A DNA stretch of 64,000 nucleotides from an uncultured Actinomycetota bacterium. GTDB taxonomy: Bacteria > Actinomycetota > Actinomycetes > Mycobacteriales > Mycobacteriaceae. A program made the position numbers and the translations under genes. Within the stretch, counting starts at the first letter, position 1. Every line of letters begins with the position of its first letter. The stretch is from contig CAWEFM010000001.1 of assembly GCA_963808345.1 (NCBI GenBank), positions 472,884 to 536,883 on the forward strand, given 5' to 3'. The notes beneath the pieces are model-generated. The model made no database searches. It worked only from the letters and a program-made list of their open reading frames with translations, and was not told where the DNA came from. Shown one piece after another: positions 1 through 12,674 of the stretch.

Positions 1-1
1 G

Positions 2-472
2 AAGGAGGCTCAGGCCAAGGTGGATGCCGCCGTCAAGGGCCAGGGGGTGGACACCACTGATGTCGCGGCACAGCTTGCCGCTGACCGCTTTTGGCGCAGG
101 ACTGAGCGCACCCTGGACAGCATCAAGGACCAGGGCAAGCTGGTTTCGGCAGCGCGGGAGTTGATCGCGAACGCCACCGATGCGGAGCTACCTGTGGTCG
201 CCGAAGAGATCGGGTCCTACCTGACCAGCAGGGGCGCCCCGACTGGCTGGCTGAATACCGCTCTGGGGCGACGGATTCCAGGTGCCGATGACTTGCGGGC
301 AGACGCCGCGCTCAAGAACAAGCGTGTGGCTGTGCTGAACCAGAACCACAACAGCCTCACCAAGGCGTTCGCTGCCGGTACGCCCACGCCGCCGTTGCTG
401 GACCCATTTTCGCCAAGCATCACGGCCGACGAGTACACGAACGGCCAGCCGTACAGCCCGACCGGCGAATAA
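2..472 (+). CDS. Hypothetical element protein (5' partial, frame open to the window edge)
   Basis: Open frame from position 2 to TAA at 472 with high-GC3 codons. No recognisable domain. Confidence 0.7.
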   Translation, partial: KEAQAKVDAAVKGQGVDTTDVAAQLAADRFWRRTERTLDSIKDQGKLVSAARELIANATDAELPVVAEEIGSYLTSRGAPTGWLNTALGRRIPGADDLRADAALKNKRVAVLNQNHNSLTKAFAAGTPTPPLLDPFSPSITADEYTNGQPYSPTGE

Positions 473-515
473 GCAATGCCCACAGCGCGGAAGGTGGTTT
501 CGGAATAGTGATTGT

Positions 516-716
516 CCGGCTGGCTTGGGCGTTTTCCGACGAAGGGTCCTCCTCCCTTCGGTCTGGGCTGGCCGGCTCGTCCGCTCGGGGCGGGTGCTGC
601 GCCACTGCTACCACGCGGTGGTCCACCTGGGCGGGCGTCGACTGGCGGCGGGGGCGTCGAGCGTCGAGGCAGGGCCTTTCGTGTCGGCTCTGACTTGGCT
701 CCGCCCCCGCCGTCAG
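516..716 (+). ncRNA. Candidate structured RNA / cis-regulatory leader of three tandem bulged hairpins
   Basis: Stems 516-530/561-575, 578-589/626-637 and 642-656/702-716 pair fully on the + strand when G-U is allowed, and each has an inner stem. Lies between the ORF ending at 472 and the ORF starting at 746. Confidence 0.55.
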
Positions 717-745
717 CTTCCACCCCACGAAGGGAGATCACCGCA

Positions 746-928
746 ATGAGTGAGGCACAACCGACAGCGGCTGTCCCGGTGTCTTCGACGCCGACGCGAG
801 TCACCGTCGCGCAGTTGGCCGACGGCATGTCGATCATGGACGCCTACAGGGCGGGCAGGTTCGCGGCGCTGGGAGCGCCAGCGCCACCGGCACGGGTGCC
901 ACGTTCAAGGCGCGGAATGCCCTGGTAG
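746..928 (+). CDS. Small hypothetical protein (60 aa, MSEAQPTAAVP...)
   Basis: ATG at 746 preceded by a GAAGGGAG RBS. It is the 3' part of the track ORF 512..928. Confidence 0.65.
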   Translation: MSEAQPTAAVPVSSTPTRVTVAQLADGMSIMDAYRAGRFAALGAPAPPARVPRSRRGMPW

Positions 929-957
929 TTCATCAGAATTCGATTGGAGGAAACGCG

Positions 958-1146
958 ATGGCTGAGAATGTTCGACCGACCGGAGCGCAGGACGCGGCTA
1001 CTCAGGCCCGCGCCGGTGAGGCCAGGGTGATCGGCAGCGACCAGGACCGCTCTGCTTCGGGGGCGCCTGACGCTGCGTCGGGCCTGGACACTTTGAAGGG
1101 CAACATCGCCAACGAGCCTGGCCCCGGCCCGCTGTTCACCAGGTAG
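958..1146 (+). CDS. Small hypothetical protein (62 aa)
   Basis: GGAGG RBS upstream. Ends 2 nt before the HNH gene. Confidence 0.7.
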   Translation: MAENVRPTGAQDAATQARAGEARVIGSDQDRSASGAPDAASGLDTLKGNIANEPGPGPLFTR

Positions 1147-1148
1147 CG

Positions 1149-1541
1149 ATGCCCCGACGCGCCCCGAAACTCTGCGCTCACCCGCTTTGTGGTGCTGTCG
1201 TCCCTGCTGGTCAGCGGCATTGCGACGAACACAAGCGGGAGCCGTGGAAGACGGCCGCGCCGACCGCGAGCGCGGTCGCGTCGAATGACCCGAACTGGCC
1301 GACCATCCGCCGGCGCATCCTTGAGCGCGACGGTCACCGCTGCCGACTGCGCTTCCCGGTGTGCAGTGGGGTCGCCACCCATGTGGATCACATCGTGGAA
1401 GCTGCGGACGGCGGCGACAACAGCGACGGCAACTTGCAAGCTGTGTGCGAGCCATGCCATAGGTCCAAGACGGGCCGTGATGCTCGCGCCCGTCAACTGG
1501 GAACCGGGAAGCACGCGCGGAGGTCTGATGGCGTCCAGTGA
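1149..1541 (+). CDS. HNH endonuclease, phage packaging-associated (HK97 gp74-like)
   Basis: N-terminal CxxxxC...C and ILERDGHRC...C...HVDHI...GG...NLQAVCEPCHRSKT HNH motif. Upstream of a TerS-like gene. Confidence 0.9.
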   Translation: MPRRAPKLCAHPLCGAVVPAGQRHCDEHKREPWKTAAPTASAVASNDPNWPTIRRRILERDGHRCRLRFPVCSGVATHVDHIVEAADGGDNSDGNLQAVCEPCHRSKTGRDARARQLGTGKHARRSDGVQ

Positions 1542-1717
1542 CGACCATGGTCTGGGCCGAGGTACTGCACCACGGTCTGGCTCAGGCGCTGCTGCGGGGT
1601 CTGCTACCGGGCCAGGTACTACCGACCATGGCGCGTTCATGCGACCGTTGCGGCGTTCACCGCTACGGTAGCGAGGACTTCGCGGCGCAGCATGTGTGCG
1701 ACGAGCGCACAACGTGA
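1538..1717 (+). CDS. Small putative zinc-binding protein (59 aa, CDRC...HVC), not in the ORF track
   Basis: GTG overlaps the HNH stop (GTGA). Translates VTTMVWAEVLHHGLAQALLRGLLPGQVLPTMARSCDRCGVHRYGSEDFAAQHVCDERTT*. Confidence 0.55.
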   Translation: MTTMVWAEVLHHGLAQALLRGLLPGQVLPTMARSCDRCGVHRYGSEDFAAQHVCDERTT

Positions 1718-1852
1718 CGATCACTCAGCGCCAAGCAAATTCCGTTACCGCCCAAGAGACGGCTAGGCACTGGGATTCATGCCCCGGCATTGCTTGCGTG
1801 AATGCAACTGGCGACACAGGCGGCTCTCGCACGCGAACATCGCGGACACCCG

Positions 1853-1971
1853 CTGACCACCATGACGGCCATCTGCTACGTCACCAGCATGGCGGCCATC
1901 TCGCCGGTGGTCACCAGCCTGCTGGCCATCTCGCCGGTCACCAGCATGGCGGCCATCTCGCCGGTCACCAG
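1853..1971. repeat. 27-bp tandem repeat (GTCACCAGCATGGCGGCCATCTCGCCG), 3 copies plus degenerate/partial flanking units
   Basis: Units at 1880-1906, 1910-1936 and 1937-1963, partial at 1964-1971, degenerate at 1853-1879. Confidence 0.9.
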
Positions 1972-2426
1972 TCCCCCGACCCAGGGCACCATCCGCCGAC
2001 TGAACAACACCCGCGACGCCTGTCCCCTCGCACCAACTGGGGCGACCGCTGCCACCATCCACCGAAGGGGCAAGCAGACCCACCGCCGAATGATGCTGCA
2101 CGCCAACACCTACAGCAAACACGGCACCGTCCACAGCAAACCACCATCCGGTCAACGCCGCTGACGACCATCCCCGCCACCCATCACCACGGTCACCATC
2201 GCCGCAGGTCAGACACCCCCACCGGGCTGGACCCCTCCCCCCAGTGCGCCGCCAGCATGGCTGACAACACGCGATTTCCGAGGCTGCAATGCACCCGTAA
2301 ACCCGCTTGCCGGTGGGCAGCAAACCGGCTTAGTCGTGCAGCAAACCTGCTGGTGGCACCGGCCGTGCGGGACGCGCCGGCATCGGAACGCGCTGGCCGC
2401 CGCCGGGCCGGCCGTAGACTTGGCGT

Positions 2427-2966
2427 ATGAGTGTTGACCAGCGCAGACGCGCCGTCGCGGAGCTGCTCGACGCAGACCCGTCGCTGTCGCAGCGGGCGAT
2501 CGCGGAGCGGCTCGGGGTCTCCCAGAAGACCATCAGCCGGGACCTGGCCGCGGTGGGTCAATTCGTGACTAACCTGTCCGGACGGGCGCCGGCGCCTGTT
2601 TCGCCGCAGGTCAATGGGGTGTCGCGTGGTGACTCGCTAGTCAAATCCATCGTCGCGGAGATGCGGAAGAACGGCTTAGAGCCCGATTCTCGCGAGGAAC
2701 AGCTACTCGACGTTGCCCGCCGGCTGGCCGATCGGTTGGATGTGCTTGATCAACTGGTCGCCAGGGACGGCGTGAGTCGCACGGTCAACGGGCGGGTTGC
2801 CCTTCATCCCGGCTTGGCCGAATCGAGGCAAGTCGAAGCGGTCCTGGTGCGCGCCCTCGCCGGCATCCAGTTGGAGGAGACCCACAAGAACGCGACCAAG
2901 CAGCGCGCGGCGAACACTAGGTGGGCGTCGCATCGGCTCAAGGCCGTCGCGCGAGGGGAGAGCTGA
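2427..2966 (+). CDS. HTH domain fused to P27-family-like terminase small subunit
   Basis: N-terminal HTH (SLSQRAIAERLGVSQKTISRDL). C-terminal LLDVARRLADRLDVL...DG...HPGLAESRQ...LVRAL pattern typical of actinobacterial P27-type TerS. Confidence 0.7.
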   Translation: MSVDQRRRAVAELLDADPSLSQRAIAERLGVSQKTISRDLAAVGQFVTNLSGRAPAPVSPQVNGVSRGDSLVKSIVAEMRKNGLEPDSREEQLLDVARRLADRLDVLDQLVARDGVSRTVNGRVALHPGLAESRQVEAVLVRALAGIQLEETHKNATKQRAANTRWASHRLKAVARGES

Positions 2967-2967
2967 G

Positions 2968-3402
2968 ATGGCCCGGAAGATCGCGGCCAGGGAGCCGGCG
3001 GCGCCGACCGTGCGGGTGCCCGGCGTCTACCGGGCGGTGCTCAGGGAGTGGTGCAGAGCCGAGGCCGTCGAGCAGCTCTCCGACCCGCTGACGGGCGTCC
3101 TGGCCGGCCCGGAGGCTGACGTCCTGGCCGAGGAGTTGTTCGCCGAGCGCGCCGGCCAACCGCTGAGTGTTCGTTGGTACGTCTTCAAGGATGCGGACCT
3201 GTTGCCGTTGCCGGCGCCGCTGGATGAGGTCGGCAGTGGGCGCGGACCGCGACGGCTGCGGGTGTGGCCCGACGACCGCGTTGATGCCGCTGAGTGGGCC
3301 GCCGACGTGGCGGCGAAGTATGAGAAGGCGCGGCACTTCCCTGGATGCGACCAGGCCTTTTTTCAGGCGGCTGCCGCCCTGACTGGAGCGGTTGGACACT
3401 GA
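2968..3402 (+). CDS. Hypothetical element protein
   Basis: ATG 1 nt after the TerS stop, GAGGGGAG RBS, high GC3. Confidence 0.7.
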   Translation: MARKIAAREPAAPTVRVPGVYRAVLREWCRAEAVEQLSDPLTGVLAGPEADVLAEELFAERAGQPLSVRWYVFKDADLLPLPAPLDEVGSGRGPRRLRVWPDDRVDAAEWAADVAAKYEKARHFPGCDQAFFQAAAALTGAVGH

Positions 3403-3403
3403 C

Positions 3404-3673
3404 ATGGCAATCACCGAAGGCAAAGGGAATTCGATCGCGTTCAGCGGCGGCGGCGTGCAGACCGAGCCACCGCAGTACCAGGGCAGTGCCCCGGTCTTCG
3501 CCAGGCCGGGAGAGCCGGAACCGAATGTGATCAGCGGGGAAGCCTTGCAGCCGCCGCAGGCCAGGCCGCGCCGTGAGGCAACGCGGACGAGGGCCGAAGC
3601 GCGCAAGCTGGGTCTGGCCCACGCAGAAGCACTCGACTTGTCCCGCGAGGAAGTGCTGGCCTACGAAGCCTGA
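3404..3673 (+). CDS. Hypothetical element protein (89 aa)
   Basis: ATG 1 nt after the previous stop, operon-like packing. Confidence 0.65.
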   Translation: MAITEGKGNSIAFSGGGVQTEPPQYQGSAPVFARPGEPEPNVISGEALQPPQARPRREATRTRAEARKLGLAHAEALDLSREEVLAYEA

Positions 3674-3881
3674 CGGCCCCGCGCTGGCTCCAGCTTCATC
3701 TTCCCGGCCGTTTGGCCGCTCCGAGAGTAAGCCCACCAGGCAGCACCCGAGATTAGGCAACAGCCGAGGGGTCCGGCGGGCGATACGCGGTCAAGCCGCC
3801 TGGTGGCCACGGCGCGAGAAATCCCAAGCCGAAGCCGGGGCTTGCATTCCGTTGCCGTACCCAAAGGCGAAGCAGCGGAGC

Positions 3882-4148
3882 CTAAGTCGCGGCATACCAT
3901 TCGGTGGTCACGATCATGTTGGCCTGCGCCACCACCACCTCGTCGGCGGCGATCCCGTCCCAGTCGCCGGTGCCGAGGATTTCGGCCTGCGCTCCTGAGT
4001 ACGGCCTCCACCCGGTGTGCGGCTGCCACGTCTCGGCCTTTGCGCGCTTCCATGCCTCCCAGTCGGCGGCGCTGTCACCCGTGACCGGCGCGTCAATCCG
4101 CAGCAGCTTGGTCGCGTACTGCGGCAACGCGTTTGCGTAGAAAAGCAT
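3882..4148 (-). CDS. Small hypothetical protein (88 aa, Trp-rich)
   Basis: MLFYANALPQYATKLLRID... with GAGG upstream. Divergent from the DAC gene. Confidence 0.6.
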   Translation of the reverse strand: MLFYANALPQYATKLLRIDAPVTGDSAADWEAWKRAKAETWQPHTGWRPYSGAQAEILGTGDWDGIAADEVVVAQANMIVTTEWYAAT

Positions 4149-4226
4149 CCTATGAACCTCATTTCGCCGGGACACGCTGGCACAAAATACAACGCCTGAC
4201 CTGCGGTTTTTATTTCTGAACGGGTC

Positions 4227-4260
4227 CGCGGCGAACCGCGGCGCGCGGCGAACCGCGGCG
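4227..4260. repeat. Perfect 17-bp tandem duplication CGCGGCGAACCGCGGCG x2
   Basis: Copies at 4227-4243 and 4244-4260, in the divergent intergenic region upstream of the DAC gene. Confidence 0.85.
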
Positions 4261-4350
4261 CAAGGCGGTTGCAGGCGACAGCGACCGCTGACGCCCGCGT
4301 ATCGGCGTCGGTTAGCCCACACCGGCTAGGGGGCATGACACGATCGGGGG

Positions 4351-6096
4351 GTGCAAGGCGACACCATTGAGCAGTTCATGTGGAGCTTCCAGCGCCAGTT
4401 CCGAACTTTGGTGGAGATGAGGCTTCGGAAGTCTCTGGAGGTGCTCGGTGTGCCTAACGAGCCGACGGTCTTCTTGATAGGTCTATTGAGAATGGGCGGC
4501 TCGGGCCATCCGCTTTGCGTAGAGCCCGAGCGAGGGCCGATCAGCCCGGCAGATTTCGACGGTCTGCATGACCGGGCCAGCGAGCTTTACCGCCAAGACC
4601 CCGACAGCAAGGTGATGAACACCGTCGCGTGGGTGCACGAACGGCGGCAGCAGTCAATCCGCCAGCGCGCCTATGGCAACGCCATCAGTGAGGTGCTAGA
4701 GGCAAAGCTCGGGCCTGGCTGGCGGTACTTCGTTTGGCTCCCGGCCCTGGTAGACGAGCACTTTGTGTTTACCGCGGTAGGGCTACCTGAGCGGGTCCTC
4801 GACGCCGCGCCGCACCTGGCATCCCGGACGATGGCCGACCGGCACCCCGTCACGCAATCGCTTGTCCAGGGCGTCATTGACGAGATCCTCCGGCTGAGCA
4901 GACGAGCGCTGTATGAGCCGGACGCTGGCGCCGGCCTCGACATCGGCGCCGAACCCGCCGACGTTGCCAGGGCGGCGGGCAGGGCCCTGACCCTCTCCGC
5001 CACCATGCTGGCCGGCAACGAGATGCCTACGGAGTTGTTCGACGGATTGAACCGGGTGGCGACTGCACGGTACGAACAGCGGGTGGGCACCGGATCGCTG
5101 CTAGTCACTCGCCGGGGCTCAGAGCACATCAAACGCTCTGTTACTCTCCGGGCGCCCGTCCGTATCAGCGAAACGAGAACGCTCAGGAAGCTGCTGGAGA
5201 CCAGCAGCCGTGACGGCGAGTCGCTACTCACCGACGGCGACGAGGTCTACGGGCTCGGACGACTGTTGAAGGGATATCCCGCTGACTCTGAGTCGGTGTT
5301 TGAGGTGCTCGTCGTCGGTGACGGCACCTGGGAGCTACGCCACGCCGGCATCGGGCTGGCGACCGTGCAATACGGTGCACCGCGGTTGCCCGAAGAGCCG
5401 GTGCGGCGCGATCAGTTCGACGATGTTTGCAGTCGGGTCTTCGGAGAATGCAACACCGATGCGCTGTGGGCGCTCGCCACGTCGGCAGGTAAGGCTGAGC
5501 ATGGAACGATGCTCGTCATCTCCGAAAGCGCCGTCGATGAGGCGGCCAGGCTTGGAAGCCAAGCATTGACTATCGACCCGACGACGCTCGACGACGGGCT
5601 CGTCCGGCAATTCACTGGTATCGACGGCGCTGTCCTTGTCGACCCATCCGGGCAATGCCATGCCGCGGGACTCATTCTCGACGGCACTGCTACCAGCGAG
5701 GGCGACCGTTCCCGCGGTGCGCGGTATAACTCCGCGGTGCGATATCTTTCCTCCACGAGAGGTACGCCGACAGTCATCCTGCTGGTGTCGGAAGACGGGA
5801 TGATCAATCTCCTACCAAGGCTCCGCCCAAGGATGAGTCGCGCCGAGCTGGTCGTCTTGCTCAATGAGTTGCGGGATGCGGCAGCTCTCGAACCCGTCCA
5901 CGCCGAACGGTTCTTTAGGGCATATCGCCGAATTGAGAAGGTGGCGTTCTATCTTTCGCCAGGCCAGATCGACGAAGTCAACGCCCTGATGGACGATCAT
6001 CGGGAGCGCCGCAAGGCGGACGGTGCGTCGATGTGGGTGAACGTGCCGCCGCTTCGCCCCGACCCGGAGATGACCGACGACTTCCTCGTCGATTGA
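4351..6096 (+). CDS. DisA_N/DAC (diadenylate cyclase-like) domain protein with long N-terminal sensor-like region
   Basis: HGTMLVIS, TGIDGAVLVD (DGA motif), RGARYNSA (variant of the RHR motif) and VSEDG in the C-terminal third. No DisA linker/HhH or CdaA TM segments are evident. Confidence 0.85.
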   Translation: MQGDTIEQFMWSFQRQFRTLVEMRLRKSLEVLGVPNEPTVFLIGLLRMGGSGHPLCVEPERGPISPADFDGLHDRASELYRQDPDSKVMNTVAWVHERRQQSIRQRAYGNAISEVLEAKLGPGWRYFVWLPALVDEHFVFTAVGLPERVLDAAPHLASRTMADRHPVTQSLVQGVIDEILRLSRRALYEPDAGAGLDIGAEPADVARAAGRALTLSATMLAGNEMPTELFDGLNRVATARYEQRVGTGSLLVTRRGSEHIKRSVTLRAPVRISETRTLRKLLETSSRDGESLLTDGDEVYGLGRLLKGYPADSESVFEVLVVGDGTWELRHAGIGLATVQYGAPRLPEEPVRRDQFDDVCSRVFGECNTDALWALATSAGKAEHGTMLVISESAVDEAARLGSQALTIDPTTLDDGLVRQFTGIDGAVLVDPSGQCHAAGLILDGTATSEGDRSRGARYNSAVRYLSSTRGTPTVILLVSEDGMINLLPRLRPRMSRAELVVLLNELRDAAALEPVHAERFFRAYRRIEKVAFYLSPGQIDEVNALMDDHRERRKADGASMWVNVPPLRPDPEMTDDFLVD

Positions 6097-6336
6097 AGCC
6101 CCGCCTGGTTCCCAATGTGGCCCGCGGCCCGGCCCGTGCAATGCCACCCCTGACGGTCGATCCGTCATCACCGGCTCTGCCCTCAGCCGTAGGCCGCGCC
6201 GCGCAGTGCTGGCCCGCACTTACCGCAATCGCGGGGGATCTAGGGAATATAGAGTGGCGGCCCCTGGCTGTTCCAGGGCCTTTCTCGTCGGCACCAGCGC
6301 TGACGCCCAGCTTGGGCACGCTGAAGTCCTGCCAAG

Positions 6337-6828
6337 TTATTCCTCGCGCGCCATCAACTGGTGAAGCTGCCGGATGAAGTCAGCCGCCCGCTTGCGTGAC
6401 TTGTCGTTGTTCTGCGGCGAGATTCGGACCGACTCTTCGTCTGTGGTGAAGTGAATCGTCGCGCTGGGCCGAACTTCCACCGGCGCCTGGTTCACGGTCG
6501 CCGCCTCCACGCTGAGATCTACCTTCCCGACCGTGTCGACCGAGCGGAACCAACCACTGATCGTCGCTTCGTCCGACCCGGCGGCCTTGCTGACCGTCAG
6601 TGAGCCGATCGCATCACCACGAAGCCAGTAAACGGTGAAGCATTCGTCTTCGGGTTTGGCTGGAAAGAATCCTTGGATGTTGTCCCGAGATCCCATGAAC
6701 TGGGCGAGGGCGTAGGCGAGTGCCGTCACCTCAATGTCAGTCAAGCTGCTGAGTTGCGCGTGGCCGGCGATGCCCGTTCGGATGTCAGTTTCGAGCTTGT
6801 CGGCGTACTCCTTGGTGGCGTCATCCAT
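6337..6828 (-). CDS. Hypothetical cargo protein (163 aa)
   Basis: MDDATKEYADKLE... start chosen downstream of the att arm repeats. Coding-like composition. Confidence 0.7.
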   Translation of the reverse strand: MDDATKEYADKLETDIRTGIAGHAQLSSLTDIEVTALAYALAQFMGSRDNIQGFFPAKPEDECFTVYWLRGDAIGSLTVSKAAGSDEATISGWFRSVDTVGKVDLSVEAATVNQAPVEVRPSATIHFTTDEESVRISPQNNDKSRKRAADFIRQLHQLMAREE

Positions 6829-6847
6829 AAGCGCGAGCCTAGAAGCG

Positions 6848-6876
6848 TGCCCACATTTTGCCCACACTTGCCCACA
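6848..6876. repeat. Three TGCCCACA direct repeats, putative tyrosine-integrase arm-type sites
   Basis: At 6848-6855, 6859-6866 and 6869-6876 (10-11 bp period), about 85 bp from the att core. Confidence 0.7.
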
Positions 6877-6958
6877 GAATTGCCTAATCGAGTGTGAATC
6901 ACTGTGATGTGTTTTGGCTGCTAGAGCGGTTTTCGGCTCTCTGAACTGGCCCCGGATT

Positions 6959-7044
6959 AGAACCACGACTTCTTCTCCGGGTCGGGGTCGTCGTACGTGA
7001 TCGGCAAGGCCGTCGTCACCGAGGACGAGGACTGGATCTTTTAA
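6959..7044 (+). pseudogene. nrdF2: Displaced 3' end of class Ib ribonucleotide reductase small subunit gene; attR of the element
   Basis: 6961-7044 reads NHDFFSGSGSSYVIGKAVVTEDEDWIF*, the hallmark NrdF C-terminus, preceded by an in-frame TAG. nrdF2 normally lies just upstream of Rv3046c-adhC. Confidence 0.9.
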
Positions 7045-7070
7045 GGTGGCCGCGGGCTACTCGGAGTGCT

Positions 7071-7607
7071 TCACTCGGGCGCACTGGCCCTCGCATCGCG
7101 CACGATGCGGAGAGCTTCGCCTTCTGTGCAGTCCAGGCCGGCATCTGTTATCTGGCGCTGCACCGCCTGCACCGCCTCATCCTCGCTGAGGTCGTCGGGA
7201 ACCTCAATTCGCCGCTGTTCCAGCTTCTCTCGTTGATTCATCTGCTCGCGCTCAGCTTCGGCTTGCTCGAGCACCTCGGTGACCACGCCGCCCGGTTTCA
7301 CAAACTCGGAAACGTTCAGCTCCCCGCTGACATCATCGGTTGCCGCGACGATTCGCGCGCGCCAGGCCTCATCGAGGTCGAGGCGCACAGAACCCGCACA
7401 TCCGGGGCACTCGAGGTCGTAGGCGGACACGTCGTCGCCGTGCCCGACAAGTTCTGTTGGCGTGCCGCCGGTTGCAGCGCGAATCGCGATGCGCTCGGAA
7501 GAGCCGCCCGGCCAGGCGGCCACTCCGATGGTCCTGGCGTCGTGCAAACCCAGCGCATCGCTGCCGGTGCAAACGATGCGGACACGGGATTCCGGCTCGA
7601 CGTTCAT
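7071..7607 (-). CDS. Hypothetical protein (C...H...CPGC possible Zn site)
   Basis: MNVEPESRVRIVC... with GGGGAG RBS and an acidic C-terminal helical region. Confidence 0.7.
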   Translation of the reverse strand: MNVEPESRVRIVCTGSDALGLHDARTIGVAAWPGGSSERIAIRAATGGTPTELVGHGDDVSAYDLECPGCAGSVRLDLDEAWRARIVAATDDVSGELNVSEFVKPGGVVTEVLEQAEAEREQMNQREKLEQRRIEVPDDLSEDEAVQAVQRQITDAGLDCTEGEALRIVRDARASAPE

Positions 7608-7908
7608 TCGCTCCCCAATCGACCTGTTGACCGTAGCAGGACACGCAGCGTGCCGGCTCTTCGTCCGAACCCGCCTGCCAGTCGCCACTGACCACGACAG
7701 ACCAAGAAGGCGGAATTCTCCCCAAGCGCCCGGGCGGCCGGCCACCGCACATTGGATCTGCGCGCGCCGCTATTGAGTTCAGCAACCTGTTCACCGAGTT
7801 CTGGTGGTTGTTCTAGGGTTTGGGCGCCACCGTGAACGGCGCGTGAATTGTGCGATTACAGCACTGTCACGCTGGCGCCGCCGACCCCTCAGCCACAACA
7901 CTGTTGGC

Positions 7909-10919: not shown

Positions 10920-12674
10920 TTGACAGCCGAAGCGCCCCCGTTACGAGAACTCGAGGCCAGTCGTCCATTCCCGGCGCGATTGGGCCCAAAGGGCAACCTG
11001 ATCTACCGGCTGGTCACCACCACCGATCACAAGCTGATCGGCATCATGTACGTCGTCACCTGCTTCGCCTTCTTCTTCATCGGCGGGCTGATGGCCCTGT
11101 TCATGCGAGCCGAACTGGCCGCGCCGGGTATGCAGTTCCTATCTACTGAGCAGTACAACCAGCTGTTCACCATGCACGGCACGATCATGCTGCTGTTCTA
11201 TGCCACCCCGATCGTGTTCGGGTTCGCCAACCTGGTGATGCCGCTGCAGATCGGCGCACCCGACGTGGCGTTCCCGCGGCTGAACGCGTTCTCGTTCTGG
11301 CTGTTTTTGTTCGGCGGCTTGATCTCGACCGCGGGCTTCATCACCCCGGGTGGGGCGGCGGACTTCGGCTGGACCGCATACACCCCGCTCACCGATGCCA
11401 TCCATTCACCAGGACCAGGCGGCGACCTGTGGATCATGGGCCTCGCCGTCGCCGGTTTGGGCACCATCCTGGGTGGGGTCAACATGATCACCACGGTGGT
11501 GTGCATGCGGGCACCGGGCATGACGATGTTCCGCATGCCGATCTTCACCTGGAACATCTTGGTGACGTCCATCCTGGTGCTGTTGGCCTTCCCGCTGCTG
11601 ACCGCCGCGCTGTTCGGGCTGGCCGCCGACCGCCACCTGGGCGCGCACGTATATGACCCCGCCAATGGTGGAGTGCTGTTGTGGCAGCACCTGTTCTGGT
11701 TCTTCGGCCACCCCGAGGTCTACATCGTCGCGCTGCCGTTCTTCGGCATCGTCACTGAAATCTTGCCGGTATTCGCCCGAAAGCCGATCTTCGGCTACAC
11801 CACGCTGGTGTACGCCACGCTGGCGATCGCGGCGCTGTCGGTGGCGGTGTGGGCGCACCACATGTTCGCCACCGGTGCGGTACTGCTGCCGTTCTTCTCG
11901 TTTATGACCTATCTGATCGCGGTGCCGACCGGAATCAAGTTCTTCAACTGGATCGGCACCTTGTGGAAGGGGCAGTTGACTTTCGAGACGCCGATGCTGT
12001 TCTCCATCGGCTTCCTGCTCACCTTCCTGCTGGGCGGACTGACCGGTGTGCTGCTGGCCAGCCCGCCGCTGGACTTCCACGTCACCGATAGCTACTTCGT
12101 GGTCGCTCACTTCCACTACGTGCTGTTCGGCACCATCGTCTTCGCCACCTACGCCGGTGTGTACTTCTGGTTCCCGAAAATGACTGGCCGGCTGCTCGAC
12201 GAGCGGCTGGGCAAGCTGCACTTCTGGCTGACCTTCATCGGTTTCCACGTGACGTTCCTCATCCAGCACTGGCTGGGTGACGCCGGTATGCCGCGCCGCT
12301 ACGCGGACTACCTGCCCAGCGATAATTTCACCTGGATGCACGCCTTCTCCACGGTCGGAGCGTTCATCCTCGGTGCGTCGATGCTGCCGTTCGTGTGGAA
12401 CGTGTTCAAGAGCTGGCGCTACGGCGAGGTGGTCACCGTCGACGACCCGTGGGGTTACGGCAATTCGCTGGAATGGGCCACCAGCTGCCCGCCGCCGCGG
12501 CACAACTTCACCGAGTTGCCGCGGATCCGCTCCGAGCGTCCGGCGTTCGAGCTGCACTACCCGCACATGGTGGAGCGGTTGCGCGCGGAAGCCCATATCG
12601 GCCGGCACGCCACCGCCGGTGAGTCCGACGAGGGCTTCGGCCCGCGGACGGAGCCGGATCGCGACGCCAGTTGA
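10920..12674 (+). CDS. ctaD: Cytochrome c oxidase subunit I
   Basis: [18 protein letters not shown] and AHFHY motifs. TTG start after GGAGG. Confidence 0.98.

Follow-up and report, generated by a model that had tools for sequence, protein, structure and literature searches.

In an environmental mycobacterium, an integrase-bearing element of ~13.9 kb has integrated into the 3′ end of nrdF and carries, next to its attR, a diadenylate cyclase gene of the CdaG/DS-2C type as accessory cargo. Judged by its sequence, the encoded protein is an intact member of this already named three-domain c-di-AMP synthase family, and the locus contributes no new kind of protein at the sequence level. We suggest that the CdaG cargo is probably a gated, phage-triggered c-di-AMP synthase that would arrest the infected cell. 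The features of the locus, in coordinates of the window (the whole stretch of 64,000 nucleotides that was analysed), are as follows.

1..6958, no strand: right half of the ~13.9-kb element (Pfam, PHROG, PADLOC and other profile matches to its genes)
1149-1541: HNH gene within the element
2427-2966: HTH/small-terminase-like gene (weak small-terminase PHROG match, E 4e-8)
4351..6096, plus strand: CdaG/DS-2C-type diadenylate cyclase gene, 581 aa (ORF; Pfam DACNG+DACNH+DAC; NF053872; AlphaFold2)
4378..4989, plus strand: DACNG domain, residues 10-213 (PF21752, E 2.7e-43)
5032..5346, plus strand: DACNH domain, residues 228-332 (PF21750, E 4e-21)
5488..5811, plus strand: DAC catalytic domain, residues 380-487 (PF02457, E 4.9e-9; Foldseek to DisA and CdaA)
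5623-5631, plus strand: DGA motif, D425-G426-A427, within the DAC domain
5722-5730, plus strand: RYN motif, R458-Y459-N460, within the DAC domain
5839..6018, plus strand: C-terminal helical region, residues 497-556 (three helices in the AlphaFold2 model)
6337..6828, minus strand: convergent orphan gene, 163 aa (GC3 0.76; no family match)
6846..6866, plus strand: 21-bp direct repeat, with another copy a short way in from the opposite end of the element (locus L002, 11111-11131)
6959..7046, plus strand: attR, where ~88 bp of the nrdF 3′ end recur (repeat comparison)

The cyclase gene starts with GTG and is uninterrupted by stops in the ORF reading of the window. The database version of the protein comprises 572 aa and begins at M10. 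Since the residues upstream of M10 are kept in the aligned homologues, the long 581-aa form is plausible. The initial annotation had described a C-terminal DAC fold with an intact DGA motif, which was confirmed by the ORF, PF02457 and Foldseek, and ~350 aa of unrelated N-terminal sequence, which Pfam resolves into the DACNG and DACNH domains. The AlphaFold2 model (pLDDT 90, pTM 0.82) gave 61 Foldseek matches for the DAC fold at E ≤ 1e-3, the best being 9y4s (5e-6); those listed are all DisA, CdaA, DacA or CdaM, plus 2fb5 of Bacillus cereus. A sequence search of the PDB with the 581-aa protein yielded no match at E ≤ 1.

The NCBIfam model NF053872 (DS2_3_antiphage) aligned to residues 6-577 of 581 over profile positions 1-575 of 576 (E 2e-177), and the order DACNG, DACNH, DAC and C-terminal helices was found within a single ~575-aa protein. 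The score of 591 bits lies under the curated equivalog cut-off of 630 bits, so the protein should be regarded as a divergent member for which the same function is not automatic. It shares with CdaG/DS-2C the four-part architecture across the full length, the DG[AS] and R[YF]N motifs, the size (~575-585 aa) and the setting, the family often being found in defence or mobile regions. It differs from the third gene of the DS-2 system in being solitary, without an adjoining phospholipase or CD-NTase, and in its host, a mycobacterium already owning a DisA-type cyclase; its identity to an enterobacterial plasmid member of CdaG is about 29%. The C-terminal helix bundle is named as part of CdaG in a preprint (bioRxiv 10.64898/2026.08.10.743972). 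At E ≤ 1e-30, the family comprises 1553 representatives. Since Pfam and NCBIfam models already cover it, the architecture is not new. PADLOC (2023 library) gave no match to the 581-aa protein, but the same library also misses the DAC of a Citrobacter DS-2 operon and a Flagellimonas member, and the blank is explained by the library date rather than by the protein.

Canonical DACs carry an RHR motif. The RYN at R458-N460, originally read as an alteration of RHR, is indeed present but represents the family signature: of the 150 best-matching representatives of the CdaG family, 145 have R[YF]N together with DG[ASG], and none has RHR. The longer family pattern G-x-R-[YF]-N is likewise present in the protein. 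D425, G426, R458 and N460 are invariant among 54 sequences. RYN was also found in the DAC of a Citrobacter plasmid operon (HTH, patatin, nucleotidyltransferase, DAC) and in the Flagellimonas member (L022). The catalytic motifs can therefore be read, at the level of sequence, as intact and of the family type. Like DisA and CdaA, the protein has the DAC fold (Foldseek E 5e-6 to 5e-4) and the DGA motif, and by analogy c-di-AMP would be its expected product. Unlike them, it carries RYN where they have RHR, lacks an HhH DNA-binding domain and a membrane anchor, and has other N-terminal domains; DisA and CdaA are core, whereas the gene here is sporadic and mobile. It is hardly credible that the protein is a catalytically dead pseudo-enzyme in which RHR was replaced by RYN. 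The canonical motif is RHR, and its His and second Arg are missing here, but R[YF]N is under strong conservation in the family, and RYN is shared with L022, a congener of one active species, and with a member from a DS-2-type operon. DS-2C enzymes are, moreover, active: according to a preprint (bioRxiv 10.64898/2026.08.10.743927), three purified proteins showed activity, two of them gave c-di-AMP by LC-MS, and the in vitro product of the family's enzymes is 3′3′-c-di-AMP. The purified enzymes were active without a trigger (bioRxiv 10.64898/2026.08.10.743927), an observation that by itself gives gating no support.

The DACNG domain was modelled alone with a pLDDT of 91.6, and Foldseek returned no PDB match at E ≤ 1e-3. 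Its best VIA match, Roadblock/LC7 (Z 6.5, rmsd 3.4, 113 aligned), falls inside the stated noise range of the tool and is followed by IclR-LBD and GAF-like folds. No enzyme-like fold was matched, and DACNG was dropped as a candidate enzymatic effector domain. Among 54 sequences, W11, Q14, C56, E58 and P59 of DACNG are near-invariant, and Y241, E242, R279, K280, E283 and W327 of DACNH are invariant. Domains of the DACNG/DACNH type are termed probable sensors in the literature; since the DACNG fold has no clear match, "sensor" is a label so far. The distant relation of DACNH to DAC cited in a preprint was not reproduced by hhalign, as the profile-profile comparison (global and local) gave no similarity, with a probability <1%. 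It should be noted that a homodimer prediction for two copies of residues 349-581 scored 0.00, which has no bearing either way on pairing.

The position of the cargo next to attR, proposed from the outset, was borne out by the nrdF 3′-end repeat at 6959-7046. The att copy joined to nrdF is located at 10937-11024 of locus L002; over 87 bp the two copies are 92% identical, with uninterrupted matches of 22, 27 and 12 bp. The element begins about 6.86 kb to the left of the window, where it contains Ymh, integrase, HTH, primase and HNH genes. The tyrosine integrase adjoins the nrdF-side att copy and is read in two frames. Empty nrdF sites are present in relatives, and a literature search on mycobacterial integrases with attB in nrdF gave one unrelated review. 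The element contains the att repeats, the two-frame integrase, the primase, the two HNH genes and the HTH gene with its weak small-terminase match, and several of its ORFs have no family match; it is plausible that the element is a phage satellite (PICI-like). No TM, SAVED or CBASS effector family was matched in the element (Pfam, PADLOC and other profile searches), in line with the earlier claim as to TM and SAVED. Two HNH endonucleases are present in it, both of phage or homing type. The promoter scan at the locus gave no promoter-like site, and the terminator scan gave one hairpin (6262-6278) not above shuffles. No RNA sequencing runs containing the locus are listed, the locus appearing only as small shares in metagenome DNA runs.

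The longest ORF of the convergent gene spans 6337..6966 (209 aa). Its GC3, however, is 0.76 from the ATG at 6828 onwards but 0.50 upstream of that codon, and the database form of the protein has 163 aa, which argues for the 163-aa call. The length and the lack of family given in the initial annotation were thus upheld: Pfam, PHROG, PADLOC and NCBIfam gave no match to this protein. Its proposed partnership with the cyclase was not. A two-gene module, with the 163-aa protein as effector or regulator of the cyclase, could draw on their adjacency, the coding-like GC3 and the common cargo position. It is nevertheless very improbable, since no homologue of the gene was found in 80 fetched loci of DAC homologues, only one other (84% identity) exists among 5.8 billion clusters, the protein is without a family match, and the stretch of similar DNA in the closest DAC loci reaches no further than 6109, short of the gene. 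From these comparisons, the 163-aa gene appears to have no conserved part in the cyclase function. No inverted repeat was found between the two convergent genes.

At the DNA level, the closest loci resemble the window at 4330-6109 only, the similarity running no more than about 20 bp past the ORF, and the gene is present in none of 60 relatives, 36 of which belong to the same genus. As far as such alignments tell, the gene moves as a one-gene cassette. Defence or mobility Pfam families occur among the nearest genes in 20 of 48 homologue loci, a rate counted without a matched control set; examples are AbiE, TIR-NB-ARC, SIR2-HerA, pAgo-SIR2, DarTG, type I R-M, integrases and transposases. The remaining 28/48 loci have housekeeping or uncharacterised neighbours only, and no conserved neighbour of the CdaG gene was found across the 48. 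The initial idea of a mobile, defence-linked DAC cargo stands as regards mobility, intactness and the ties of the family and of these 20 loci to phage defence, but not as regards a partner gene or an altered motif. In five loci of Nocardioidaceae type (L019-L021, L026, L027), the gene has a stable setting, with genes for a cation ATPase, HSP20 and pirin at its side. This setting points to a physiological role in some lineages. In two others (L008 and L015), patatin and weak CD-NTase-like genes adjoin the DAC gene.

The host genome carries a gene for a DisA-sized DAC (91.6 bits), and 36/50 CdaG genomes likewise carry a housekeeping-type DAC, which argues for a gated rather than a constitutive enzyme. 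In the other 14/50, no second DAC was detected, and 10 of these 14 are also without SMODS; signalling through native c-di-AMP receptors therefore cannot be a general rule. Contig C5 of the host contains a complete CBASS with a phospholipase effector (E 3e-107), a cyclase (E 3e-114) and E2 (E 1e-47) by PADLOC, together with an RmrA/CapH-CapP-like regulator; the single SMODS match of the genome is on this contig. No CD-NTase or phospholipase was found beside the DAC gene in the element or its flanks, whereas in the DS-2 operon a phospholipase and a cGAS adjoin the DAC. As in CBASS, signalling in a defence would be the task of a cyclic-dinucleotide synthase, but the enzyme fold is different and no effector gene is linked. 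With PanS of Panoptoo/PanDA, the protein would share the recruitment of a DAC domain for anti-phage defence. According to a preprint (bioRxiv 10.64898/2026.08.10.743972), PanS is a constitutive enzyme of ~150 aa paired with a 2TM-beta membrane effector, and it is reported never to share a genome with a housekeeping DAC. CdaG, in contrast, has ~580 aa (581 here), no conserved partner and a housekeeping DAC in most of its genomes, and profile scans matched no 2TM-beta effector family among the neighbours of the gene.

Based on the above, we suggest the following course of action for the cyclase. The N-terminal domains would keep the protein inactive until a phage cue allows the DAC domains of two protomers to pair and to make c-di-AMP. 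The targets of the resulting burst of c-di-AMP would be the receptors through which the host itself responds to c-di-AMP (in ion and osmolyte uptake, the cell wall and recombination), or else another receptor, and the infected cell would be arrested in this way. Alternatively, a DS-2 system may be split over two loci, with the CdaG of the element acting in trans with the phospholipase, CD-NTase and E2 of the host CBASS. The complete CBASS on C5 would suit such an arrangement, as would the pairing of patatin and a CD-NTase-like or nucleotidyltransferase gene with the DAC in L008, L015 and the Citrobacter plasmid. DS-2 is the sole validated system of the family. According to one article (PMC13092281), it is a phospholipase, cGAS and DAC operon, its DAC catalytic mutants lose defence in E. 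coli, and 15/30 homologues of the E. coli-type DS-2C lie within CBASS operons. But the cyclase and the CBASS here are on different contigs, the gene travels alone, and SMODS was matched in only 10/50 CdaG-bearing genomes (9 above the cut-off), so co-occurrence is not the rule and may be due to chance here. We consider a split system unlikely.

To much the same degree, it is unlikely that the enzyme has nothing to do with immunity and instead acts in stress signalling or host manipulation, resetting c-di-AMP-dependent physiology (ion and osmotic balance, recombination, cell wall) on behalf of the element or of the cell. The host natively uses c-di-AMP, the five cation ATPase/HSP20/pirin loci keep the gene in a stable setting, and more than half of the homologue loci have no defence or mobility neighbours. 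Against this stand the link of the family to defence islands (PMC13092281) and the enrichment of CdaG branches in antiphage neighbours (bioRxiv 10.64898/2026.08.10.743972). The sporadic distribution and the one-gene cassette transfer also resemble those of accessory immune genes.

Returning to the phage-triggered cyclase, a broader proposal can be made, although we hold it to be doubtful. A solitary CdaG gene may by itself be a self-sufficient immune sensor, with native receptors in place of a dedicated effector as the abortive-infection arm. If so, in hosts with native c-di-AMP signalling (36/50 CdaG genomes, and the present mycobacterium with its DisA-type gene), a phage-triggered burst would recruit housekeeping receptors as effectors, and the DS-2 form linked to CBASS would be the derived one, serving hosts that lack these receptors. 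The role of CdaG/DS-2C outside CBASS operons is a point left by the two 2026 preprints and the DefensePredictor paper. The present locus is a clean natural case, in which a single gene has entered a small mobile element as a cassette. For the genus, the biology of c-di-AMP is well studied, and a tractable surrogate host is available along with many collected phages. The locus could therefore serve to find out whether a solitary CdaG defends alone and what reads its signal. Among 50,697 phage records, one contains a partial relative (DACNH+DAC), and relatives were found at three loci of IMG/VR.

The gene at window 4351-6096 (+) is a 581-codon open frame with a GTG start. Its product is a further member of an already known protein family, CdaG/DS-2C diadenylate cyclases, and not a new protein. 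NCBIfam NF053872 "DS2_3_antiphage" covers residues 6-577 (E 2e-177) at 591 bits, slightly below the equivalog cut-off of 630. The initial annotation had described ~350 aa of unrelated N-terminal sequence; this description has to be replaced, since Pfam places two named domains there, ahead of the cyclase domain:

Residues 10-213: DACNG (PF21752), Pfam E 2.7e-43
Residues 228-332: DACNH (PF21750), Pfam E 4e-21
Residues 380-487: DAC (PF02457), Pfam E 4.9e-9

The DefensePredictor study (PMC13092281) describes E. coli DS-2 as made up of phospholipase, cGAS and DAC, and reports that mutation of two predicted catalytic DAC residues abolished DS-2 defence. In the preprint by Ragucci et al. (bioRxiv 10.64898/2026.08.10.743927), the third protein is named DS-2C, with DACNG, DACNH and DAC; in vitro activity is reported for three such proteins, c-di-AMP was detected by LC-MS for two of them, and the immune role is stated to be undefined. 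A second preprint (bioRxiv 10.64898/2026.08.10.743972) names the family CdaG, following Galperin 2023, finds CdaG branches enriched in antiphage neighbours, and describes DACNG, DACNH and the C-terminal bundle as being of unknown function. By analogy with the members studied in these papers, the cyclase would synthesize c-di-AMP and its family would act in defence.

The DGA motif is unbroken, as first noted (D425-G426-A427). Across an alignment of 54 family members, reaching down to 27% identity, there is no variation at D425, G426, R455, G456, R458, N460 and S461. RYN (R458-Y459-N460) does occupy the RHR position, but calling it an alteration was not justified. When 1.84 billion representatives were searched with an HMM, 3071 proteins matched at E≤1e-3, of which 1553 reached E≤1e-30. 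R[YF]N was present in 145 of the 150 best representatives and RHR in none; two of the remaining five end before the motif, two are divergent at it and one was read by the pattern as RGD. The motif is also kept in a Flagellimonas member (IDGS and GARYNSA) and in a 581-aa homologue (IDGT and GSRYNSG) on a Citrobacter IncC/IncP plasmid, where HTH, patatin, nucleotidyltransferase and cyclase genes are consecutive. Judging by this conservation, RYN is a family signature and no lesion.

The AlphaFold2 model, built from 54 sequences, was confident (pLDDT 90, pTM 0.82). Its C-terminal half resembles DisA and CdaA structures (Foldseek, 61 matches at E≤1e-3), and three helices follow the DAC domain at residues 497-556. 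DACNG modelled alone was also confident (pLDDT 91.6) and gave no Foldseek match at E≤1e-3. Its top VIA matches were Roadblock/LC7, MglB and Ragulator, IclR ligand-binding and GAF domains, with Z of 6.5 to 5, inside the range that this tool labels common arrangements. The modelled fold would agree with a sandwich of regulatory or ligand-binding type; no enzyme-like match was prominent in either comparison. No similarity between DACNH and DAC was found by hhalign. Residues conserved in the 54-sequence alignment (C56, E58 and P59 in DACNG; Y241, E242, R279, K280, E283 and W327 in DACNH) likely mark functional surfaces.

The gene lies at the right end of an element inserted at the nrdF 3' end. The terminal ~88 bp of nrdF (10937-11024 of L002, the locus reaching left of the window, G000:C1:472884-536883) are repeated at window 6959-7046 with 92% identity over 87 bp, and ~13.9 kb separate the two copies. 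The proposed cargo position beside attR was thereby borne out.

Left of the window: nrdH/I/E, PE-PPE protein, TetR regulator, monooxygenase and nrdF
L002 11112-11912 (+), window about -6772 to -5972: Hypoth_Ymh/TIGR02391-like gene, immediately inside attL
L002 12029-12784 (-) and 12513-13043 (-), window about -5855 to -4841: tyrosine integrase in two overlapping frames, both matching phrog_1 at successive profile positions
Other element genes: HTH gene, Toprim primase, two HNH endonucleases, HTH protein with a weak small-terminase PHROG match
Right-end cargo: cyclase, then the 163-aa gene at window 6337-6828 (-), with coding-like GC3
Window 7071-7745 (-): 224-aa ORF between attR and the DUF3349 gene, no family match
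Right of the cyclase region: DUF3349 gene, zinc-binding alcohol dehydrogenase, Peripla_BP_2 periplasmic binding protein, COX1 (cytochrome oxidase subunit I), ACT-HAD phosphatase

In other species of the genus (among them G029, G030, G003, G008, G023, G004, G063 and G033) the nrdF end lies at most about 1.1 kb from the DUF3349 gene, and the site is empty in at least eight other species. Several core copies are present in some genomes: three in G022 (one contig), two in G013 (2.6 kb apart) and four in G026 (four contigs). Based on this short spacing and these multiple copies, the insertion is real and the nrdF 3' end looks like a hotspot of repeated integration in the genus; cargo varies among the insertions of relatives. 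Going by its gene content, the element may be a satellite. The Ymh gene adjoins attL on the inner side, so accessory cargo is found at both ends; this gene gave only a marginal HEPN-type match in PADLOC (E 9e-4). The integrase is split by a frameshift; this is either genuine, in which case the element is immobilised, or an error of the assembly. An exact, GCCCACA-rich 21-bp direct repeat inside each end (window 6846-6866, L002 11111-11131) may provide recombinase or regulator binding sites. The 224-aa ORF is chromosomal and outside the element, since its DNA is 82% identical in the relative G013.

The cyclase gene has a GC3 of 0.75, below that of flanking core genes (0.85-0.87), and no homologue was found in 60 relatives, 36 of them of the same genus. 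Its nearest public relatives share 71-75% protein identity, and their DNA matches only window 4330-6109, i.e., the ORF with ~20 bp before and 13 bp after it. Full-length relatives were found on 6 of 72,556 plasmids. A shorter DACNH+DAC form, without DACNG and covering at most query residues ~222-531, occurs on five further plasmids (Bacillus and Priestia) and in a single Bacillus phage among 50,697 phage records.

Clustering of 877 neighbour ORFs from 55 loci revealed no conserved cyclase neighbour; the biggest non-DAC cluster covered 7 loci. Neighbours were scanned with Pfam in 48 loci (7 at ±7 kb, 41 with up to two ORFs of ≥110 aa per side), omitting 7 ORFs >1000 aa and 26 selected ORFs of L053-L062. 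Defence or mobility families adjoin DAC in 20 of these loci (raw count):

L004, L035: AbiE
L007: DarT-Macro
L010: TIR-NB-ARC
L012: SIR2 and HerA
L014: multi-ubiquitin/E1
L015: patatin, EAD1-trypsin
L016: Piwi and SIR2
L018: Ymh gene
L022: PLD, ParB, S24
L031: HEPN
L032: resolvase
L033: type I restriction enzyme
L035, L036, L039: integrases
L041, L042: transposases
L043: methylase/PDDEXK
L049: Mrr
L053: D12 methylase

In the remaining 28 the neighbours are housekeeping or unknown genes, including a group with cation ATPase, HSP20 and pirin. A patatin with a weak CD-NTase-like gene makes L008 and L015 DS-2-like.

Among 50 genomes with a CdaG locus, many of them incomplete MAGs, 36 carry a housekeeping-type DAC (E≤1e-21) and 10 a SMODS match (9 over the cut-off). 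No other DAC was detectable in 14, ten of which also lack SMODS. The unpublished genome G073 (locus L011) counts once in both tallies and contributes a single row to alignments A3 and A4 as well as to the neighbour scan; nothing is concluded from it alone.

Taken as a whole, the initial annotation was confirmed in its observation and supported in part in its interpretation. We lean towards a solitary, phage-triggered c-di-AMP synthase. Since CdaG usually shares its genome with a housekeeping DAC, and constant synthesis would disturb native c-di-AMP signalling, gating of the enzyme is probable, as we propose, by its N-terminal part. Because there is no conserved neighbour and 40 of the 50 genomes lack a CD-NTase, the reader of the signal is probably unlinked: native c-di-AMP receptors where present, the unlinked CBASS in G000, or an unknown receptor. 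A non-immune signalling role seems unlikely to us. That the adjacent 163-aa gene is the partner is very doubtful: it has no family match (Pfam, PADLOC, PHROG, NCBIfam), a single homologue (84% identity) among 5.8 billion clusters, and none in any of the 80 loci retrieved around DAC homologues. A dead enzyme is hardly credible with RYN as the family signature. The locus offers a tractable test case for the function of solitary CdaG.

Contig C5 of G000 carries a DisA-sized DAC gene (370-aa ORF, 91.6 bits) and a complete CBASS (L094 5625-9334) with an RmrA/CapH-CapP-like regulator, patatin phospholipase, CD-NTase and E2. With phospholipase and cyclase on C5 and CdaG in the element, G000 has every DS-2 part, though unlinked; this favours CdaG working in trans with the CBASS, which we nevertheless consider improbable. 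After the CBASS comes a 772-aa ORF that matched no family, and an intein-bearing dnaB (L094 12560-15895, -) lies nearby.
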